Source: an uncultured Kangiella sp. (GTDB lineage: Bacteria; Pseudomonadota; Gammaproteobacteria; Enterobacterales; Kangiellaceae). From it: a stretch of 64,000 nucleotides of DNA. The position numbers were made by a program, and so were the translations under genes. The notes under the pieces are model-generated. The model saw nothing but the letters and a program-made list of their open reading frames with translations, was not told the DNA's origin and did no database searches. The stretch is from contig CANNDL010000001.1 of assembly GCA_947503435.1 (NCBI GenBank), positions 83,469-147,468 on the forward strand, in the 5' to 3' direction. This document shows, one piece after another, positions 23,637 to 33,860 of this stretch. The number at the start of each line of letters is the position of its first letter. The stretch's first letter is position 1.

Positions 23637-25742
23637 TTGAATAAATTTAAGCTCGGAAGCTGGAAAGTCGAACCGAACAAAAGCTTGCTGACATCTGATA
23701 ATGGTAAAGAAGTGCGTATTGAGCCGCTCAATATGGCATTGCTTTGCTATTTCGCTAAACACCCAGTCGATCCAATCAGCCGCGAAAAATTAATCGAGGA
23801 TGTGTGGGACAATAAAGTGGTTACCGATCACGCCGTTTATAAGACCATCAATCAATTACGAAAATATTTGGCTAGTGATGGTGACTCGCAAGATTATCTT
23901 AAAACCATACCTAAGAAGGGCTATTCATTAGTTGCTCCACTTGAGGAAATCGTTGAAGCGTCACCAAAAGATGTGATTAATCTTAAGTTTGAGGCCACAT
24001 CTGCTAATGGGTTTACTAAATGGTTCTATAAGCACCCGGTGCTACATACTTTAGGCTTATTAATAGTAGCTGGAATTTTCATATGGAATTTAGGCTTGAA
24101 TACTTGGTGGTATAAAAACCAGCAACCAGTTTATAACAACCTCTCTGTTCTTGCTCAAATTGATGGGGTACTCGATCAAGCCATTCCTTCCCCAAATGAA
24201 AAATTGCTAGCAGTGACCAGTTATGGAGACAGCGATGTTAACAACCGGAAAATATTCTTATTAAATCTAGAAAGCCAAGAAGTATCTCAGCTGACTGATG
24301 GAATACACGATTTCTCTGAAATATCCTGGAGTTCTGAAGGCAACTATTTGGTTGCTTCAAGAAAACCAATTTCATCAATGAATGATGAATATTGCGATTT
24401 AGTATTGCTTGAATTGTCTAAAGACTTTTCTCGGCTAAAGTCGCAAAAAGAAGTGACTTCTTGCTCACCAAGGGGCTCCAGCGCTCAGTTTGATGAAGAG
24501 TCTGAGATGGTATATTACAACTTTGCTCAATCGAACATAGTACCTTCTAGCTTATATAGCTATTCTTTGAGAACTAAAGAAATAGAATTATTGACTAACC
24601 CAGGAAGCGCTGTGTGGGGAGATTGGAGTGTAAGGCTCTCTCCAGACAAAAGTAAACTCTTGTTTATGAGGGTTTATGAAGAAGCAAGTGAGATATTTTT
24701 ATATAATCTGAAGACCAAAAAAGAACAGTTTTTGTTTAAGTTTATTGGCTATCCGGATGAGTTATCTTGGGCTGGTAACAACGAAAAAATTATCTACCAA
24801 CCAAACAATAATCAGGTGGTTCTTTACTCAATAGTTGATAAATTTCATAAAACTATTATCACTAAAGAAGACTCCATTGTTTCTAGTTTTCATTCTCTTG
24901 CTTCCGACAGTATCTATACGGTGAGCAGGTTAAACGATATTGAAATTGTTCAATTCGATATAAAACACCCTCAAAAAGCAAAAGTGGTTAACTCTTCAAA
25001 GGCTATGGAGTTTTCGGGTATATATGCCAATACTAGCGATAACTATGCCTTTGTATCGAAAAGAAGTGGCAGCTGGCAACTTTGGTTACAAACAAATAAG
25101 CAATTAAAAATGCTTACCAATAATGACTCCGATGGCGTTATATTTACTCCAACTTGGTCTTTTGACGACAAGCAAATAGTCTTTAATTTAGGCGGAGCCA
25201 TCTATGCTTATGATTTTGAAAAAGATGAAACACTAGAAATATATGCTGAAGAGGATGTTTATTTGCAAAATCCATTTTGGTCTTCAGATGCTAAAAGTAT
25301 TTATTTTACCAAGCTGGTGGCAGATACAAATCAAATTTTTAAATTGGAGTTGAAAAATAAAACAATTAAACAAATAACCAGTGATGGAGGATATGCTGGT
25401 GCGATTTCATTGAGCAATAATGCATTGTATCTAGTAAAAGATGAGCAATTTGGGTTATGGCGATTGGACTTGTCAAATTTAGAAGAAATTAAGATTAATG
25501 ATATAGCTTCCAATGAAGACCAAGAATTTATCCATACTGTTGAAGATGGATTATATTTTAGTAATTTAAAAGGATATTTAAAGAGTTTGTATTTTGTTGA
25601 TTATGAAACGCATACCACTAGAAAAGTAGTAGACTTTATTAGTAGAGATGTTGCAGGATTTTCAGTGAATCACACGCAAGAAAAGGTCTTGACCACGGTT
25701 ACACATGCTTCAAATGCCAACTTAACTATCTACAGGCCTTAA
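23637..25742 (+). CDS. CadC/ToxR-like membrane transcription regulator: wHTH, TM helix, periplasmic TolB-like beta-propellers
   Basis: IEPLNMALLCYF...ISREKLIEDVW...INQLRKYL...LKTIPKKGY (OmpR/PhoB-type wHTH); TM near residues 135-152; repeated PD40-like motifs (WSSEG, LSPDK, WSFDD, WSSDA). Confidence 0.88.
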   Translation: MNKFKLGSWKVEPNKSLLTSDNGKEVRIEPLNMALLCYFAKHPVDPISREKLIEDVWDNKVVTDHAVYKTINQLRKYLASDGDSQDYLKTIPKKGYSLVAPLEEIVEASPKDVINLKFEATSANGFTKWFYKHPVLHTLGLLIVAGIFIWNLGLNTWWYKNQQPVYNNLSVLAQIDGVLDQAIPSPNEKLLAVTSYGDSDVNNRKIFLLNLESQEVSQLTDGIHDFSEISWSSEGNYLVASRKPISSMNDEYCDLVLLELSKDFSRLKSQKEVTSCSPRGSSAQFDEESEMVYYNFAQSNIVPSSLYSYSLRTKEIELLTNPGSAVWGDWSVRLSPDKSKLLFMRVYEEASEIFLYNLKTKKEQFLFKFIGYPDELSWAGNNEKIIYQPNNNQVVLYSIVDKFHKTIITKEDSIVSSFHSLASDSIYTVSRLNDIEIVQFDIKHPQKAKVVNSSKAMEFSGIYANTSDNYAFVSKRSGSWQLWLQTNKQLKMLTNNDSDGVIFTPTWSFDDKQIVFNLGGAIYAYDFEKDETLEIYAEEDVYLQNPFWSSDAKSIYFTKLVADTNQIFKLELKNKTIKQITSDGGYAGAISLSNNALYLVKDEQFGLWRLDLSNLEEIKINDIASNEDQEFIHTVEDGLYFSNLKGYLKSLYFVDYETHTTRKVVDFISRDVAGFSVNHTQEKVLTTVTHASNANLTIYRP

Positions 25743-26635: not shown

Positions 26636-27364
26636 CTAGTTTTGTGGGCATTCTGGTTTTTCGAGTAAGCATTGTAAATGCGATAAAGCTACTTCGTTGG
26701 TTTTTGCTTGATTGGCTCGTAAGTTTTGGAGGCGCGCCTGAATGGAAGCCTGAAAGAGCATCAGAGTCACAAACTTTTCATCTTGAAATACCGGTTCGAA
26801 AGTAAAGCGAATAAACATTTCTCCACTTTCAGCTCGGAAAAGATAAGAGATTTCATTCATGTGTTCTTCTAAGTAGCCGCCACCTTGACGTATATAGTCA
26901 ATCGTACCATTCGATTGAGTTTGCGACGCGGCTACTTTTTGTAGTAATTCTCTTAACTGTCTATCTTTTATCAAGGCCAACCTACCTGTTGATAGTAACT
27001 CTTCCCAAGCCCCCATTTGTAATGCTGCACTAGGAACTGCATTCCAAGGCGTTACTCTTTTAGTTAGTGTTGCATGAGTATCCGGGTTCCATTCTTCTTG
27101 CATTAGGAAGCTTGCTACTTCATTTATGTTATTCCGTATTTTGCCGTGAAACTCAGCGAGACTAGACAACTCAGCGACATTTTCTTTCAAGTCTTCGTTA
27201 AGTCTTTGCAAATATTGTTGCTCTAAAGCTGTTTCATTACGCTCTTGAGTCCAGTTTGTTACCTGCATACCAAGAAATATACCCACTACAACTACGCAGA
27301 CATCAAGTCCGACGGCGAGCCAGTTTTGGTCTTTTACGTGTTGCATAAAGCGGCGTAACAGCAT
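26636..27364 (-). CDS. Conserved hypothetical membrane-anchored protein (DUF6090-like)
   Basis: LRRFMQHVKDQNWLAVGLDVCVVVVGIFLGMQVTNW N-terminus, WEELLSTGRL. Confidence 0.65.
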   Translation of the reverse strand: MLLRRFMQHVKDQNWLAVGLDVCVVVVGIFLGMQVTNWTQERNETALEQQYLQRLNEDLKENVAELSSLAEFHGKIRNNINEVASFLMQEEWNPDTHATLTKRVTPWNAVPSAALQMGAWEELLSTGRLALIKDRQLRELLQKVAASQTQSNGTIDYIRQGGGYLEEHMNEISYLFRAESGEMFIRFTFEPVFQDEKFVTLMLFQASIQARLQNLRANQAKTNEVALSHLQCLLEKPECPQN

Positions 27365-27521
27365 TCGAAGCTTCCTTTGGATTAGAAGTATCAGAAAAGT
27401 GTAGCTCCAATTATTAAATTAGTCGAGGAATGGCCCACGGCCTCTAGGCTCTTATATTCTAAAAAGATTGTGCTAAACTTATGCCAAATTATATCTAACA
27501 ATCAATAAGAAGCAGGGGATT

Positions 27522-28325
27522 ATGGATCTTTTTACGCTCGAAAACTTATTTACTTTAATGATGCTTATCGTCTTACAGGCGGTTTTAGGCTTCGATAACT
27601 TACTTTATATCTCTCTAGAATCTAAGCGAGCGCCAGTTGCAGAGCAAAAACGCGTTCGCTGGCTTGGTATTGGAATCGCGGTAGGTTTAAGAATCGTACT
27701 GTTATTCACTTTGATGAAGCTTATCGACTACGTGCAAGGCGATATGTTCAGCCTTGACTGGAAAGGTGTAGTAGAAGGTACCTTCACATTTGAAAGCATA
27801 ATCATCTTATTCGGTGGTGTATTCATCATGTACACGGCAGTAAAAGAAATCTGGCATATGATGGCGTTAGAAGTGGATGGTGGCGTTGAACGTAAACCTC
27901 AATCAGCCGCTAAGATTATTGCGCTTATAGTTATGATGAACCTAGTATTTTCTTTCGACTCAATATTAAGCGCTATGGCTTTAACTGATAACTTCTGGAT
28001 TATGGCAACCGCGATTATTGCCAGTGGCATCGCGATGATTTGGCTGGCTGATACAGTTTCTGAATTCTTAGAGAAAAACCGTATGTTTGAAGTCTTAGGC
28101 CTATTTATTCTATTGATCGTTGGTGTGATGTTGCTAGCCGACGGAGGCCATAAAGCAGGTTTAACTTTCTTTGGCAGTGAAATTACCCCAATGAGCAAAG
28201 CGACTTTCTATTTTGTAATTGCGGTATTGGTATTGAGTGATATCGTCCAATCTAAATATCAAAAAAATCTATTGAAGAAGAAAGAACGATTAGCAAAGCA
28301 AGCTGAAATGGCTAATAAGTCATAA
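27522..28325 (+). CDS. TerC family membrane protein
   Basis: LQAVLGFDNLLYI, MNLVFSFDSILSA, FEVLGLFILLIVGVMLLADG. Confidence 0.9.
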   Translation: MDLFTLENLFTLMMLIVLQAVLGFDNLLYISLESKRAPVAEQKRVRWLGIGIAVGLRIVLLFTLMKLIDYVQGDMFSLDWKGVVEGTFTFESIIILFGGVFIMYTAVKEIWHMMALEVDGGVERKPQSAAKIIALIVMMNLVFSFDSILSAMALTDNFWIMATAIIASGIAMIWLADTVSEFLEKNRMFEVLGLFILLIVGVMLLADGGHKAGLTFFGSEITPMSKATFYFVIAVLVLSDIVQSKYQKNLLKKKERLAKQAEMANKS

Positions 28326-28330
28326 ACGCA

Positions 28331-28358
28331 TTGAATCTTTGAGTCAAAGCTGTACTAT
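28331..28358 (+). promoter_or_regulatory. Putative sigma70 promoter of the borosin cluster, with a palindrome in the spacer
   Basis: TTGAAT-16 nt-TACTAT; the spacer contains CTTTGA-G-TCAAAG. Confidence 0.5.
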
Positions 28359-28396
28359 TACAAGCTGTTGATTTTAATAACAATAAGGAGACTACA

Positions 28397-28618
28397 ATGT
28401 CAAAATTAAAAGACTTTTTAAAAGAATTAGGTACTAATGCACAACTACTAGAAGATTATAAGCAAGATCCTGATAAAACCATGCAAGACTATGGCTTAAC
28501 TCAGGAAGAAATTGATGCTGTATGCAATCTTGATATGCCAAAAATCAAATCAATAATTGGCGATAAAGAAAGCGATTACTATACCATTGTTATTAATAAG
28601 CATGAGCATGGACTGTAG
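28397..28618 (+). CDS. Split-borosin RiPP precursor (SonA-like borosin-binding domain plus C-terminal core)
   Basis: MSKLKDFLKELGTNAQLLEDYKQDP...GLTQEEIDAV...DM.K.K...GD closely parallels S. oneidensis SonA as recalled; strong RBS AAGGAG; borosin methyltransferase two genes downstream. Confidence 0.88.
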   Translation: MSKLKDFLKELGTNAQLLEDYKQDPDKTMQDYGLTQEEIDAVCNLDMPKIKSIIGDKESDYYTIVINKHEHGL

Positions 28619-28629
28619 TTGTTAGTAAG

Positions 28630-30357
28630 TTGTCTCGTTTACTTTTCCTATTCTTTTTTACTTTTTTTTCCTTATCGATTGAGGCTAATGCTTCAATCGA
28701 TGAGGAATTAGAGTATTTAATAAAAATTAATGGAATAAGTAGTGACTTAGCAAGTAATAAAATTAAGGAACTTGAAAACCGATGGTCCGAATTTGAGACC
28801 GATGATCAAAGGGCAGAGTTTTACTTGCAAAAAGGGTACTTCCACTTACTAAGAAGTGATTTTTCTGAAGCACGAGCCGTACTTGAAAAAGCCTTAGCAC
28901 TTTCCTCGATATCGGCAGATAATAAGGTTGTTGCTTATAATTTTTTGTCACAAATTGCAAAGGGCGAGAATGATTATTTAGAATCGTTTGAGTACCTATT
29001 TAAAGCACTAGAAATTATCCCAGAATTAAAAGAGCCTAAGCAAAAGATAGCTTTTTATCACAGCTCCTCTAATACACTAATACAGATGGGGTTCTGGAAT
29101 GAGGCACTTACTTACTCCAAAATTGCTTTGGATATATCAGAAGAATCGAATATAGAAATTAGCAAGTGCTATTTACAGGCTCAAATTTACGAAATTCATA
29201 ATAAAATGGGAATTGCTCAGGGCTTGGCTAAAAATATTGAGAAGGTCATTAATGAGTGTGAAGAGCACGACATATCGTTGCTATTAGCTAATTTATACCG
29301 AAGTTTAGGAAATAACCATCTTTATACTGGGGATCTAGGGTCTGCTTATACAGCATTAGAGCTGTCCAGAGATTATTTAAAAGAAAACCCTTATCAGCCA
29401 GAAAGAATGGAATTGTTTTATAGCTTAGCTTCATTGTATTTCCAGCAAGGTGATATTCAGAAGTCTGAGTATTATATAAAAATGATCTTAGATAGTGAGA
29501 AGAATGACTGGAGTTACCTTGAATATGAAATCTATGAATTATTATCTAAATTAGAGGAAAAAAAGGGTTCTGCTGCAAGTGCCAATAAATATTTGCTTGA
29601 TGCTTATGAAGCTAAAATTGAACGGTTCGAAGAGAGAAACAGACTTGGCTTGATATATCAGAAAGTTAAATATTCAAATTTAGAAAGTGAAGCTCAGATT
29701 AAGATCTTGGACCAGGAAAATGAACTTTTAAAGCTAAATTCCGAAGTCCAAGCTCAATCAAAAAGAATTTATCAGCTGTTTTCGGTAATTACCGCGTTAT
29801 TAGTGGCACTAATTACACTTATGTTTTTGAGAACAAAAAAACTAAAAGAGCGTTATCAAGAGCTTTCTAGAAAAGATGGATTAACGGGCGTTTTATCGAG
29901 GCGTTACGCTCTTAAGATTGCAAAGGACGTGCATAGTAAAAGCATTGCCAATGATCATAAGTATAGTTTAGTGGTTTTTGACTTAGATTATTTCAAATCA
30001 ATTAATGATAGGTATGGACACGCCATTGGTGATTGGGTTTTAAAGCAAGTTACCGAAAAAGTTTCGTCGCAGATTCGCAAAGTTGATGCGTTTGGCCGTT
30101 TAGGCGGTGAGGAATTTATTTTGGTTCTACCCGATACTGAATCACAAGAAGCAAAAATGTTAGCCGAGCGTTGTTTAGAAGCAATTAAGACTATTCAGCA
30201 TGATGTATTTGATGATCATTATGTTGTAACTGCTAGTTTTGGCGTTGCGACTTATCCAGAGTTTAAAGATTTAGAAGCTCTAATTCAAAATGCGGATGAT
30301 GCTATGTATAAAGCCAAGCAAATGGGACGCAATCAGATCTTTAGTTTTGCTCAATAA
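28630..30357 (+). CDS. Membrane diguanylate cyclase: signal/TM, periplasmic TPR-like helical domain, TM, GGDEF
   Basis: Hydrophobic N-terminus, TPR-like repeats, TM near residues 379-399, DLDYFKSINDRYGHAIGD, RKVD I-site and GGEEF active site. Confidence 0.92.
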   Translation: MSRLLFLFFFTFFSLSIEANASIDEELEYLIKINGISSDLASNKIKELENRWSEFETDDQRAEFYLQKGYFHLLRSDFSEARAVLEKALALSSISADNKVVAYNFLSQIAKGENDYLESFEYLFKALEIIPELKEPKQKIAFYHSSSNTLIQMGFWNEALTYSKIALDISEESNIEISKCYLQAQIYEIHNKMGIAQGLAKNIEKVINECEEHDISLLLANLYRSLGNNHLYTGDLGSAYTALELSRDYLKENPYQPERMELFYSLASLYFQQGDIQKSEYYIKMILDSEKNDWSYLEYEIYELLSKLEEKKGSAASANKYLLDAYEAKIERFEERNRLGLIYQKVKYSNLESEAQIKILDQENELLKLNSEVQAQSKRIYQLFSVITALLVALITLMFLRTKKLKERYQELSRKDGLTGVLSRRYALKIAKDVHSKSIANDHKYSLVVFDLDYFKSINDRYGHAIGDWVLKQVTEKVSSQIRKVDAFGRLGGEEFILVLPDTESQEAKMLAERCLEAIKTIQHDVFDDHYVVTASFGVATYPEFKDLEALIQNADDAMYKAKQMGRNQIFSFAQ

Positions 30358-30385
30358 TAAGCACTAATTTTAAAAAGAATAAATT

Positions 30386-31189
30386 ATGAATAAAAAAGGT
30401 TCTTTAACCTGTATCGGTACAGGTATCACTCTAGCAGGACAAATCACTAAAATTTCTGAAAGCTATTTGCAAACTGCAGATATTGTTTATGGAATCTTAC
30501 CTGACTTTATGTCTGAAGAATGGATTAAAAGTTTAAATCCTAACTATCAAAGTTTACAGCCGCTTTATGGAGAAGGTAAATCCCGACGACAAACCTATCG
30601 CGAAATGACTGACATGGTTTGTGATGCTGTAAGAGATGGGAAGCGAGTTGTGTTAGCGCTTTATGGTCACCCCGGAATATTTGCCTGCGTTGGGTATTAC
30701 GCGATTGAAGATTTAAAGAAAGAGGGATACATAGCCAAGATGTTGCCAGGAGTTTCTGCTGACGCTTGTCTTTATGCTGATTTAGGCTTTGATCCTGGAA
30801 ACTATGGATGTCAAAACTATGAAGCCAGTCAGTTCCTATTTAGAGGTTTAACTCCAAACGTAGGATCATATTTAATTTTATGGCAGATAGCATTAGCCGG
30901 AGAGCACACACTTAAAACTTTTAAAACTTCAAAAGGAAATTTGCAAGCAACAGTGCGTATCTTAAATAAATATTATCCACTAGATCACGAAGTGATTATT
31001 TATGAAGCTCCTTTTCTACCCATTCAAGAACCAAGAATTGATAGGTTTCCATTGAAAGACTTACCCGAAATTAAGTTGAAGTCTATTTCAACTATGGTGA
31101 TACCGCCATTAACGCCATTGGAACTTAGCCAAGAAGCGCTAGAAGAATTTGGGTTGAAGATTACAGACTTTGGGCAAGAGTCTAAATAA
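30386..31189 (+). CDS. Borosin peptide backbone alpha-N-methyltransferase (SonM-like, tetrapyrrole methylase fold)
   Basis: GSLTCIGTGI, Y61/R67/Y71 (LY...SRRQTY), LYGHPG (Y93), PGVSADACLYADLGFDPG, YEASQF, LWQI, YPLDHEVIIYEA. Confidence 0.92.
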   Translation: MNKKGSLTCIGTGITLAGQITKISESYLQTADIVYGILPDFMSEEWIKSLNPNYQSLQPLYGEGKSRRQTYREMTDMVCDAVRDGKRVVLALYGHPGIFACVGYYAIEDLKKEGYIAKMLPGVSADACLYADLGFDPGNYGCQNYEASQFLFRGLTPNVGSYLILWQIALAGEHTLKTFKTSKGNLQATVRILNKYYPLDHEVIIYEAPFLPIQEPRIDRFPLKDLPEIKLKSISTMVIPPLTPLELSQEALEEFGLKITDFGQESK

Positions 31190-31207
31190 TTCTTATTGAT
31201 AGGACAT

Positions 31208-31236
31208 AAAAAAGCCCGCGAAACGCGGGCTTTTTT
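31208..31236. terminator. Bidirectional intrinsic terminator
   Basis: AAAAAA-GCCCGCG-AAA-CGCGGGC-TTTTTT. Confidence 0.9.
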
Positions 31237-31250
31237 ATTACTGAAAGAAA

Positions 31251-33860
31251 TTATACTTTCTTCAACTCTAAGGCTGCTTTAACCAAGTCTTTAACGTACT
31301 GGTTATGAGCTTTAGTCGCTTCTGATTGCCAGAAAGCTGTATCAGCATCGGCATCAATGTTCTTCAGCTGTTGACGAGCTAATGCAACACTCTGATTGCT
31401 ATAGCCAGCTTTGCCATTTGACTGAACGATACGTGCTAAACCTTTGATGTACTCAATCTGTAAATTTTGACGCATAGAGTTCACATCGCCAGAATCACCT
31501 TTAAAGATAGCGTTAGTTAAATCACTCATCACTTCTGATAATTCGTATTCATTGCCATACATTGCTGAGTCAATGATACGTTTTTGAACTACAGGGTGAA
31601 GTAATTGAACCAGCACACCACGCTGAGTGTTTAAAGCCCAGTCATGAACTTTTGGATCTTCAGTAAAGCTGAAGTGATTGAAGCCACGACGTTGCAATTG
31701 TAGCTTGCTTAAAATGTCTTTATTAAAATCAAAAGCATCTTCTGCAAAGATATATTTAGCTAACGCATTCATGGCTTCTTTCTGCTTGGTTTTCTCAACT
31801 GGCTGGAATGGCTCAGTTGCGCCAGGTTGTCCAGCAAATCCACGATCTAAATAAACACCACCAATGTAGCGTGAGATAGTACGAGCGTGGCCACCGTATT
31901 GGCGATATAGAGCACCGAAACCATTCACAAGGCCTTGGTAAGAATCGCCTTCTTTAACCAGACGGCCGACTAATTGATCTTCAACGTTACGGATATGATC
32001 CATTTGACCAACTGCGAAACCAACTGCGTCCGAAGTCATGTCACCAACGTTAATGCGTGGGTCAATGGCTTTACCAGGAGAGCGCATATCATCCGCATCG
32101 TTACCAAACGCTAATTCAGGTTCAGTAGAGCGTGCTAATAAAGCAGTCATTCTGTCTTTTTCAGCGTCGGCATTTCCTAGAGAAGGTTTATAACCAAACT
32201 CAATTGCCCATAAATCGTATGGACCGGGAGTGGTGGTATAGAAATTACCTTGCTTTCCATCAGTAGCAAAGTTAATTGCCGGATAGTCCATCACTGATCC
32301 TGTCAAACCGACTGAAGCAGTTTTATTTTTATCACTGACCGAATCTAAGTCATGCAATTGGCTTGATTTCATGTTGTGGTTCAGACCAAGGGTGTGACCA
32401 ACTTCGTGTAATACTAAGAAGTGGATGAAGTCGTATAAGAAGTCTGAAACTTCTTCAGGGCTATCGACCATCGCTTCCATCATCATGCGGCCATCCATCG
32501 CGTCTTGGTACATAGCCTTATGGATGTTGGTGTCATACTCAAGTGATTCTTCCATCGCTTGTTCCATGCTGATAGCTTCTGTTGCCATCAACTCTTCAGC
32601 AAAAGCGATACGATTAAATACTGAGTATTCCAACATGATATCAGCGCCAAGCAACTGACCAGTGCGCGGGTTAGCAAAACTTGGGCCATAACCACCGAAT
32701 GGAGGGCGTGGAGATGAAGTCCAACGTAAAACGTTATAACGAATATCGCCCGCATCCCATTCAGCATCATCAGGCTGAACTTTTACTTGGATGGCATTTT
32801 TAAAGCCGGCTTTTTCAAAAGCTTTATTCCACTCAAGAGTCGCGTGTTTTACCGTTTCGCGAATATGCTCAGGAGTCGTATTTTCAATCCACCATACGAT
32901 TGGTTCAACCGGCTCTGAAAGCTCAGCTGTTGGGTCTTTTTTCTCTAAGTGCCAGCGACGAATCACATCACGATAAGGCGTGTGATCAGCCACCGCAGTC
33001 ATATCGTGCACTTGATTCATAAAGTAGCCTACGCGCGGATCGTCATAACGAGGCATGTAATTATTTTCTGGGACTTCAATCATTGAGTGACGAACACTGA
33101 CTTCGATTGAACGAGGATCGGTTACCGCGAATAATCCTGGGGTTACCGTTCTTGCTTGAGGAACGATTGGGGCAGGGTTGTCGTAAACATACTCTACTTG
33201 GAAGTCTGTGTTTTCTGGGTAATTATCGATTTCAACGTATTTAGTTTTGCTTTTGCTTAATTTGCCTAAACCTAAACGCGTACCCGGCTTAGTGCCTGGT
33301 CGTGGCGATGGTTTAATTTGCAGTAAAGACTCCGATAAGAACAGTTTATCGGCATCAATTAATATATCACCAGTATCTTTATCTTCGGCAATGATCGGTA
33401 AACTACTAATTACCGGACTATTGATGTTGGCATCTTTAGCTTTAGAAACGGCATTTTCTGGATCAAAGTAAAAACTGGTATTTTCAGCTTTGAATTCGAT
33501 GTTTTTGTAATGACGGTCAATGGAGTAAATTCGTGCGCCGGCATAAGCACCACGGAATGCAGCTACACCTACTAAGCCATCACTCACTTGCGCGAAGTGT
33601 AAAAACTCTTTACCAAGTTGGTCTTTTTTAATGACCATTTTTAATTTGCCAGTTTTAGGGTCTTGGTATAAATCGAATAAACCTTCGATTTTGGTCATGT
33701 CCTTAACAGTTTCTTGGATAGTTTTAGCTGCTTTTTGCTCTTTTTTAGCCTTGGCAGGAGCAGCTGCTTCAGCCACAGGGGCGGTAAACGCTACTGTTGA
33801 GCCTAATAAAGCAATTGCAAGCGCTTGGCTTACTTTATTGATTTTCATGTGATTCCCCAC
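31251..33860 (-). CDS. Secreted zinc-dependent metalloprotease (metzincin; DUF5117/DUF4953-type)
   Basis: Signal peptide, HEVGHTLGLNHN (HExxHxxGxxH), Met-turn GSVMDYP, DPRVGYF; the start may be the ATG at 33848. Confidence 0.9.
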   Translation of the reverse strand: MGNHMKINKVSQALAIALLGSTVAFTAPVAEAAAPAKAKKEQKAAKTIQETVKDMTKIEGLFDLYQDPKTGKLKMVIKKDQLGKEFLHFAQVSDGLVGVAAFRGAYAGARIYSIDRHYKNIEFKAENTSFYFDPENAVSKAKDANINSPVISSLPIIAEDKDTGDILIDADKLFLSESLLQIKPSPRPGTKPGTRLGLGKLSKSKTKYVEIDNYPENTDFQVEYVYDNPAPIVPQARTVTPGLFAVTDPRSIEVSVRHSMIEVPENNYMPRYDDPRVGYFMNQVHDMTAVADHTPYRDVIRRWHLEKKDPTAELSEPVEPIVWWIENTTPEHIRETVKHATLEWNKAFEKAGFKNAIQVKVQPDDAEWDAGDIRYNVLRWTSSPRPPFGGYGPSFANPRTGQLLGADIMLEYSVFNRIAFAEELMATEAISMEQAMEESLEYDTNIHKAMYQDAMDGRMMMEAMVDSPEEVSDFLYDFIHFLVLHEVGHTLGLNHNMKSSQLHDLDSVSDKNKTASVGLTGSVMDYPAINFATDGKQGNFYTTTPGPYDLWAIEFGYKPSLGNADAEKDRMTALLARSTEPELAFGNDADDMRSPGKAIDPRINVGDMTSDAVGFAVGQMDHIRNVEDQLVGRLVKEGDSYQGLVNGFGALYRQYGGHARTISRYIGGVYLDRGFAGQPGATEPFQPVEKTKQKEAMNALAKYIFAEDAFDFNKDILSKLQLQRRGFNHFSFTEDPKVHDWALNTQRGVLVQLLHPVVQKRIIDSAMYGNEYELSEVMSDLTNAIFKGDSGDVNSMRQNLQIEYIKGLARIVQSNGKAGYSNQSVALARQQLKNIDADADTAFWQSEATKAHNQYVKDLVKAALELKKV

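Follow-up and report, generated by a model that had tools for sequence, protein, structure and literature searches.

The window, the whole 64,000-nt stretch of DNA that was analysed, belongs to an uncultured Kangiella sp. with a genome of 2.36 Mb. It contains three genes on one strand that encode, in order, a small precursor peptide, a diguanylate cyclase, and a peptide methyltransferase; the intergenic gaps are 11 nt between precursor and cyclase and 28 nt between cyclase and methyltransferase (Table 1). The sole terminator of this three-gene unit stands after the methyltransferase gene. The hairpin at 31214-31236 was missed by a consensus terminator scan, and the complete A-run-hairpin-T-run element (31208-31240) separates the methyltransferase gene from a convergent Met-zincin gene. 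A promoter scan returned 7 sites compared with 12.8 in shuffled sequences, fewer than in the shuffles, and no promoter is claimed. No Rfam family was matched within 27000..32000, and the ORF list contains no overlapping ORF of at least 40 aa on the strand opposite the precursor gene.

Table 1. Features of the precursor locus and residues observed at each position of the conserved C-terminal block.
Feature	Position (nt)	Strand	Basis or residues observed
Shine-Dalgarno AAGGAG, 6 nt 5' of the precursor ATG	28385..28390	+	Read from sequence
SonA-type borosin precursor gene, 73 aa	28397..28618, stop included	+	ORF list; phmmer to SonA; 9 further Kangiella genomes with orthologs
Leader, residues 1-55, five-helix borosin binding domain, last residue G55	28397..28561	+	AlphaFold2, Foldseek, alignments
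Predicted released 18-mer D56-L73, DKESDYYTIVINKHEHGL	28562..28615	+	Shewanellamide A boundary after G55
Conserved 14-residue block D60-L73, DYYTIVINKHEHGL ("core" of the first-pass annotation)	28574..28615	+	Ungapped among 11 Kangiella-type sequences
Hydrophobic patch Y62-T63-I64-V65-I66, expected N-methyl carrier	28580..28594	+	Aligned with SonA L63-H67; SonM site rules
Invariant tail pair E70-H71	28604..28609	+	11/11 Kangiella-type sequences, plus P0006 and P0008
Signal peptide + TPR + TM + GGDEF diguanylate cyclase gene	28630..30357	+	Pfam GGDEF 7.6e-42, TPR
SonM-type peptide α-N-methyltransferase, 267 aa	30386..31189	+	E 2e-92 to SonM, ~1e-46 to OphMA
Intrinsic bidirectional terminator GCCCGCG-AAA-CGCGGGC + TTTTTT, A-run before hairpin	31214..31236	+	Read from sequence
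Block position 60			D/E (11 Kangiella-type sequences)
Block position 61			Y 11/11
Block position 62			Y/L/P/A; most variable core position, homolog of SonA L63
Block position 63			T/V/L (11 Kangiella-type sequences)
Block position 64			I/V (11 Kangiella-type sequences)
Block position 65			V/I (11 Kangiella-type sequences)
Block position 66			H 8/11, I 3/11
Block position 67			N/H (11 Kangiella-type sequences)
Block position 68			Variable (11 Kangiella-type sequences)
Block position 69			Variable, H/D/S/N/K (11 Kangiella-type sequences)
Block position 70			E 11/11
Block position 71			H 11/11
Block position 72			Variable (11 Kangiella-type sequences)
Block position 73			L/M (11 Kangiella-type sequences)

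The precursor gene translates to MSKLKDFLKELGTNAQLLEDYKQDPDKTMQDYGLTQEEIDAVCNLDMPKIKSIIGDKESDYYTIVINKHEHGL, with the C-terminus ...IIGD-KESDYYTIVINKHEHGL. The segment flagged in the first-pass annotation (28565..28618) spans the codons from K57 through L73 and the TAG stop, and the numbering given there for I64, V65, I66, H69, and H71 agrees with the translation. The precursor matched the SonA chains 7LTC_B, 7LTS_B, and 9CH2_B in phmmer searches with E values between 7e-16 (7LTC_B) and 1e-14. Its AlphaFold2 model, calculated with 45 homologs as input, contains helices at residues 4-13, 15-23, 25-32, 36-43, and 47-53 (pLDDT 85-92), followed by an unstructured segment from residue 54 to 73. SonA chains accounted for all of the best 30 PDB matches to this model in Foldseek, and the predicted leader superimposes on the SonA docking domain (BBD) with an rmsd of 0.6-0.9 Å across ~50 residues. 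The five modeled helices and their overlay on SonA uphold the earlier description of a helical leader ending in ...IIGD. Gly55, two residues past the last helix, is invariant in an alignment of 20 sequences and conserved at 90% or more in one of 45. A single-sequence database search retrieved only 4 relatives of the precursor, and a profile search was needed to reveal the family; NCBIfam lacks a borosin model and produced only sub-threshold noise. The precursor is a homolog of SonA, and phmmer, AlphaFold2, and Foldseek agree in giving it the five-helix docking domain of a type IV split borosin (residues 1-53), followed by a disordered linker and core.

The enzyme encoded at the end of the unit is a stand-alone α-N-methyltransferase of the borosin branch with the TP_methylase fold. 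It is 56% identical to SonM in a global alignment and retains the SonM catalytic and lock residues Y58 (here Y61), R67, R68, Y71, Y93, F99, E146, W166, Q167, E173, L176, and F179, the importance of which has been established by mutagenesis and structures. The pairing of a SonA-type precursor core, identified by phmmer, with a SonM-type methyltransferase in one operon bears out the initial call of a borosin core peptide, and by analogy with SonM the neighboring enzyme very probably methylates the precursor core on its backbone. When compared with the nine other Kangiella orthologs, the methyltransferase at 30386-31189 has three unique substitutions: Y59P, located two residues ahead of catalytic Y61, and H104Y and F105Y, located directly past the YGHPGIFACVG motif. 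These enzyme changes, which lie near active-site elements and make the methylation register less certain, occur in the same lineage as the core changes L62Y and H66I.

Orthologs of the precursor, 49-69% identical over the full length, are present in 10 of the 24 Kangiella genomes searched, including the window's own, and their gene is clustered with that of the enzyme in these relatives. The order precursor-GGDEF-methyltransferase is found at all 10 Kangiella loci (e.g., Kangiella sp. HZ709, an uncultured Kangiella sp., and K. marina), where the enzymes are 70-83% identical to the window's methyltransferase. The same trio occurs in the alphaproteobacterium Iodidimonas in the Kangiella order, whereas in Shewanella the order is methyltransferase-precursor-GGDEF; the S. 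oneidensis cluster (SO1478-SO1481) includes the GGDEF partner (PMC10549244). Hundreds of type IV split borosins are known, and GGDEF proteins have been reported in 56% of split borosin clusters. None of the papers in the library searched names both Kangiella and borosins.

The genes flanking the trio were considered as cluster components and rejected. Only the three nearest relatives have TerC (27522..28325) and the convergent Met-zincin DUF4953 gene (31251..33860) beside the trio; these genes are missing at the other six Kangiella loci and in Shewanella, which points to synteny rather than membership. A "cation pump" neighbor was likewise discarded as support for metal binding by the peptide: the neighbor is a TerC-family protein here, whereas the Shewanella cluster is followed by a 603-aa membrane protein with no similarity to TerC, and other Kangiella have neither protein. 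Elsewhere in the window, the region 23637-25742 (+) encodes a 701-aa protein with an N-terminal OmpR/PhoB-type winged-helix DNA-binding domain in a ToxR/CadC-like one-component layout; its long remaining region gives a weak match to PD40 beta-propeller repeats (20.9 bits, at the cutoff).

The closest characterized system is SonA/SonM of Shewanella oneidensis MR-1, a type IV split borosin that yields shewanellamide A (PDB 7LTC, 7LTE, 7LTS, 8T1S, and the 9CH series). The precursors are similar in length (71 aa for SonA and 73 aa here) and share the five-helix domain with G55 at its end and an aromatic residue that precedes a brief hydrophobic stretch; the enzymes are 263 aa (SonM) and 267 aa with all key residues kept, and both clusters include a TPR-GGDEF gene. 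Unlike SonA, the Kangiella precursor has a shorter linker, and its core is DYYTIVINKHEHGL rather than SYLVISHGNGD: the homolog of the first methylation site is Tyr instead of Leu, Ile stands in place of the His that follows the patch, and the tail has three more residues and ends in E-H-G-L instead of G-N-G-D. The fungal type I borosin OphMA (omphalotin) has the same methyltransferase fold and catalytic residues and also methylates the backbone of a hydrophobic core iteratively, but in OphMA the enzyme and core are fused in one protein, nine methylations are introduced, and the product is macrocyclized.

Conservation of the C-terminus among orthologs had been set beforehand as the test that could refute the prediction, and the C-terminus proved to be conserved as an ungapped block with the consensus x-Y-x-[TVL]-[IV]-[VI]-[HI]-[NH]-x-x-E-H-x-[LM]. 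The 14-mer named in the first-pass annotation coincides exactly with this indel-free block in the alignment of Kangiella orthologs. The Kangiella orthologs share the 14-residue frame together with Y61, E70-H71, and [LM]73, and P0006 and P0008 also retain Y61, E70-H71, and L73. By comparison, neither the sequence nor the length (2-4 residues) of the linker joining G55 to position 60 is constant. The window's precursor and the metagenome proteins P0002 and P0003 form a subclade that has Y62 and I66, where other Kangiella have Leu, Pro, or Ala and His, respectively. Within this subclade only the window's precursor has N67 and consequently lacks a His immediately following the patch.

The methylated residues of SonA are L63 and I65 (PMC10549244, PMC11751858), in agreement with the first-pass annotation. 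A bulky residue at position i-1 sets the first site for SonM: Tyr62 of SonA works at this position, as does Phe, but Ala does not (PMC11751858). The SonA Y62A mutation scrambles the methylation pattern, Leu or Ile serve at i-1 in homologs, and Trp or Pro at site i moves methylation by +1. Unexpected patterns arose with SonM variants that had longer hydrophobic runs, and such runs can compete for register. The core of the window's precursor has the expected short stretch of hydrophobic residues behind an aromatic or bulky one, with Y61-Y62-T63-I64-V65-I66 aligning on SonA Y62-L63-V64-I65-S66-H67. This register, in which Y62 corresponds to L63, I64 to I65, and I66 to H67, was obtained both with MAFFT on 20 precursors and with a codon alignment, and a relative with the sequence DYLVIVH, a near copy of SonA SYLVISH, sets the frame for the genus. 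Codons shared with relatives at T63 (ACC) and N67 (AAT) support the ungapped alignment; Y62 (TAT versus TTA) and I66 (ATT versus CAT) each differ from the relatives by a two-step codon replacement. An indel realignment that would make the window's Y62 the homolog of SonA Y62 was therefore rejected, since the T63 and N67 codons favor the ungapped version. In a second MAFFT run with 120 sequences the Kangiella cores were placed one residue out of register relative to the 20-sequence run. In P0002 and P0003, Y62-T-I-V-I-H67 restores the Y-x-φ-φ-φ-H spacing, shifted by one, which fits a register shift in the Y62/I66 subclade.

These alignments bear on the prediction that I64 and I66 are methylated as the counterparts of SonA L63 and I65. 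The I-V-I triplet does look like L-V-I, the exchange of H66 for I66 lengthens the subclade's hydrophobic stretch by one residue so that Y62/I64/I66 or I64/I66 could be used, and the unexpected patterns of SonM variants with longer hydrophobic runs lend this some plausibility. Nevertheless, the protein and codon alignments place I66 on SonA H67 and on the His66 of 8/11 orthologs, so the pairing of LVI with IVI is off by one and methylation of I66 is not supported. Moreover, use of I64 as the first site would put Thr at i-1, whereas a bulky i-1 residue fixes the first site and Y62A scrambled the pattern. The I64/I66 pair is thus improbable as a whole, although its first member survives: I64 corresponds to I65, where SonA carries its second methyl group. 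Application of the bulky-aromatic i-1 rule points to Y62/I64 or T63/V65 rather than I64/I66. The pair Y62 and I64 would be the strict homologs of SonA L63 and I65, anchored by the invariant Y61; the pair T63 and V65 would follow if Y62, the second of two Tyr in a row, occupied the i-1 aromatic pocket. Each pair on its own is a tentative assignment, and the sequence leaves the two registers equally live; the remaining probability falls to some other pattern or to three sites. I64 is the single likeliest residue to carry a methyl group, and we would expect it to be methylated with somewhat better than even confidence. Precursors at loci L005-L007 (Kangiella G018, G009, and G002) have Pro at the SonA L63 equivalent (EYPVVVHNVKEHNL), which makes the first SonA site unusable and requires another methylation pattern in that clade. 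The SonA pattern therefore cannot hold unchanged across Kangiella, and the pattern may vary within the genus.

Shewanellamide A consists of SonA residues D56-D71 released by cleavage after G55, with methyl groups on L63 and I65; it was recovered from cell pellets only, in trace amounts, and its activity is not known (PMC10549244). Because this cleavage follows G55, which is near-invariant in the precursor alignments, D56-L73 is the predicted product. The start at K57 or D60 given in the first-pass annotation would be displaced to D56 by the same precedent and the conserved glycine. The computed mass M of D56-L73 is 2160.049 unmodified and 2188.080 with two methyl groups; the same routine gives 885.4025 for shewanellamide A, compared with the published m/z of 885.403. 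By extension of the SonM/SonA work, the leader would dock on the methyltransferase dimer and the core would thread through the active site, where SAM would supply methyl groups to two, possibly three, backbone amides within Y62-I66, one after another in the N-to-C direction. No protease gene is linked to the precursor cluster; a protease with its gene elsewhere would then cut after G55 to give a linear, cell-associated, methyl-carrying 18-mer, DKESDYYTIVINKHEHGL. Taken together, we consider it likely that the flagged segment forms the core, at the C-terminal end, of a precursor for a type IV "split" borosin RiPP, that the neighboring enzyme methylates the backbone of this core, and that a protease releases a methylated 18-mer.

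The tail following the patch had been described as His-rich with an H-x-H element that could bind metal. It contains 2 His among the final 7 residues, and H-x-H is not conserved: H69 varies, and E70-H71 alone is invariant among 11 sequences. At least two His are present within the last 8 residues in 11/11 tabulated sequences, at varying spacing, and in the window's precursor the His at 66/67 is lost and H69 is present instead. In SonA, the GNGD residues at the C-terminus have a tuning effect on the second methylation, and R68 of SonM contacts the C-terminus. Given this tuning and the retention of R68 here, recognition by the enzyme is the simplest reason for conservation of the tail. The E-H-x-[LM] end thus most likely helps to position the core for later methylation, as GNGD does in SonA, and it may also carry the activity of the peptide. 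Metal binding by the tail is speculative; zinc is present in some SonM-SonA crystals, at the dimer interface and not on the core. C-terminal peptides are classic ligands of TPR domains, which clamp them. The genus-specific end E-H-x-[LM]-COOH, together with the two or more His always kept, could conceivably be the functional head of the mature peptide, either a ligand of the TPR domain of the co-transcribed GGDEF cyclase or a small His/Glu/carboxylate metal site, with the window's subclade as a shifted-register variant, but we regard this proposal as a long shot. If true, the TPR-ligand version would connect a self-produced N-methyl-peptide to a c-di-GMP circuit.

The Kangiella genomes contain further split borosin genes. 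A paralogous type IV precursor family (MSKKKLEEFIIKLSED...) is found in most of them (loci L012-L024 and L045), with cores such as HLITIIKMMKD, CIHIVTLMKDDK, and ELIVTGIIHLVKK. In K. taiwanensis (L045) the paralogous precursor gene directly precedes a methyltransferase gene, and no GGDEF gene was detected in the locus. The window's genome lacks a precursor of the MSKKKLEEFIIKLSED type. It does contain a second split borosin cluster outside the window, on contig C3 at ~301000-306000, in the order GNAT acetyltransferase (PF13302), 245-aa methyltransferase, 83-94-aa precursor, and 579-aa TPR-GGDEF protein. The 245-aa methyltransferase is 47.5% identical to the window's enzyme, the precursor ends in ...NICSFIVPAEDDDEDDDSNEDHDDDSNEENKLLVNAS, and the layout and anionic tail resemble SamA1/SamM1 of Shewanella amazonensis. 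Also outside the window, at C3:504841-506016 (-), is a 435-aa ORF with a pepsin-like A1 aspartic peptidase domain (PF00026), a domain that is rare in bacteria and was found in 0/14 control genomes. This peptidase, ~200 kb from the second cluster, is a candidate for a SamP/shewasin-type borosin protease. Two M1 aminopeptidases, of the family of SO1059, are encoded on contig C2.

Three other accounts of the precursor were weighed against the methylated 18-mer. SamA1/SamM1/SamP of Shewanella amazonensis is likewise a split borosin system with a docking-domain precursor and a stand-alone enzyme, but there SamP acts on the precursor only once it has been methylated, and the peptide set free by its cut carries no methyl group (bioRxiv 10.1101/2024.01.09.574750). 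If this precedent applied here, patch methylation would mark the precursor for the protease and the product would be the unmethylated His-containing tail, approximately N67-L73. The E-H-x-[LM] tail is indeed the best conserved part of the core, and the genome encodes the rare pepsin-like A1 peptidase. On the other hand, SamA1 is methylated on a single Phe and extends into a long anionic tail, whereas the tail here is just seven residues (NKHEHGL) without an acidic run; the precursor is related to SonA at the level of an ortholog, and the natural product made from SonA retains both methyl groups; and the peptidase lies on another contig, and its association with the SamA1-like second cluster is more plausible. 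We consider release of an unmethylated tail very unlikely, and the same low probability applies to a precursor that stays unprocessed and acts at full length on the methyltransferase or cyclase, either as partner or as regulator, with methylation modulating the interaction. The cluster without a protease gene, the trace amounts of shewanellamide A and its lack of known activity, and the nesting of the GGDEF gene between the precursor and methyltransferase genes would agree with such a role; the demonstrated cleaved product of the homolog SonA and the near-invariance of G55 at the known cleavage point speak against it. Finally, Pfam LigA matches the precursor with an E value of 2.7e-4, and many database entries use the name "LigAB LigA subunit domain-containing protein", which would make it the small subunit of an extradiol dioxygenase. 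The match scores 21.5 bits, below the 25.3 cutoff, no LigB-type gene is among the neighboring genes, and the PDB chains carrying this name are SonA. The database annotation reflects fold resemblance only, and a dioxygenase subunit, the least probable of these accounts by far, is effectively refuted.

The precursor is a new but ordinary member of the Shewanella-type "split borosin" family and not a new kind of system. Shewanellamide A is the only bacterial borosin product chemically defined so far, and the Kangiella precursor is close enough to SonA for processing by the same logic. It differs at exactly those positions through which, according to the SonM mutagenesis work, regiospecificity is steered: the one following the anchor Tyr, the His behind the patch, and the tail at the C-terminus. 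These differences make it a natural test of the SonM rules. It would also add a second product, with a different tail, for asking what role these peptides and their ever-present GGDEF partner play.
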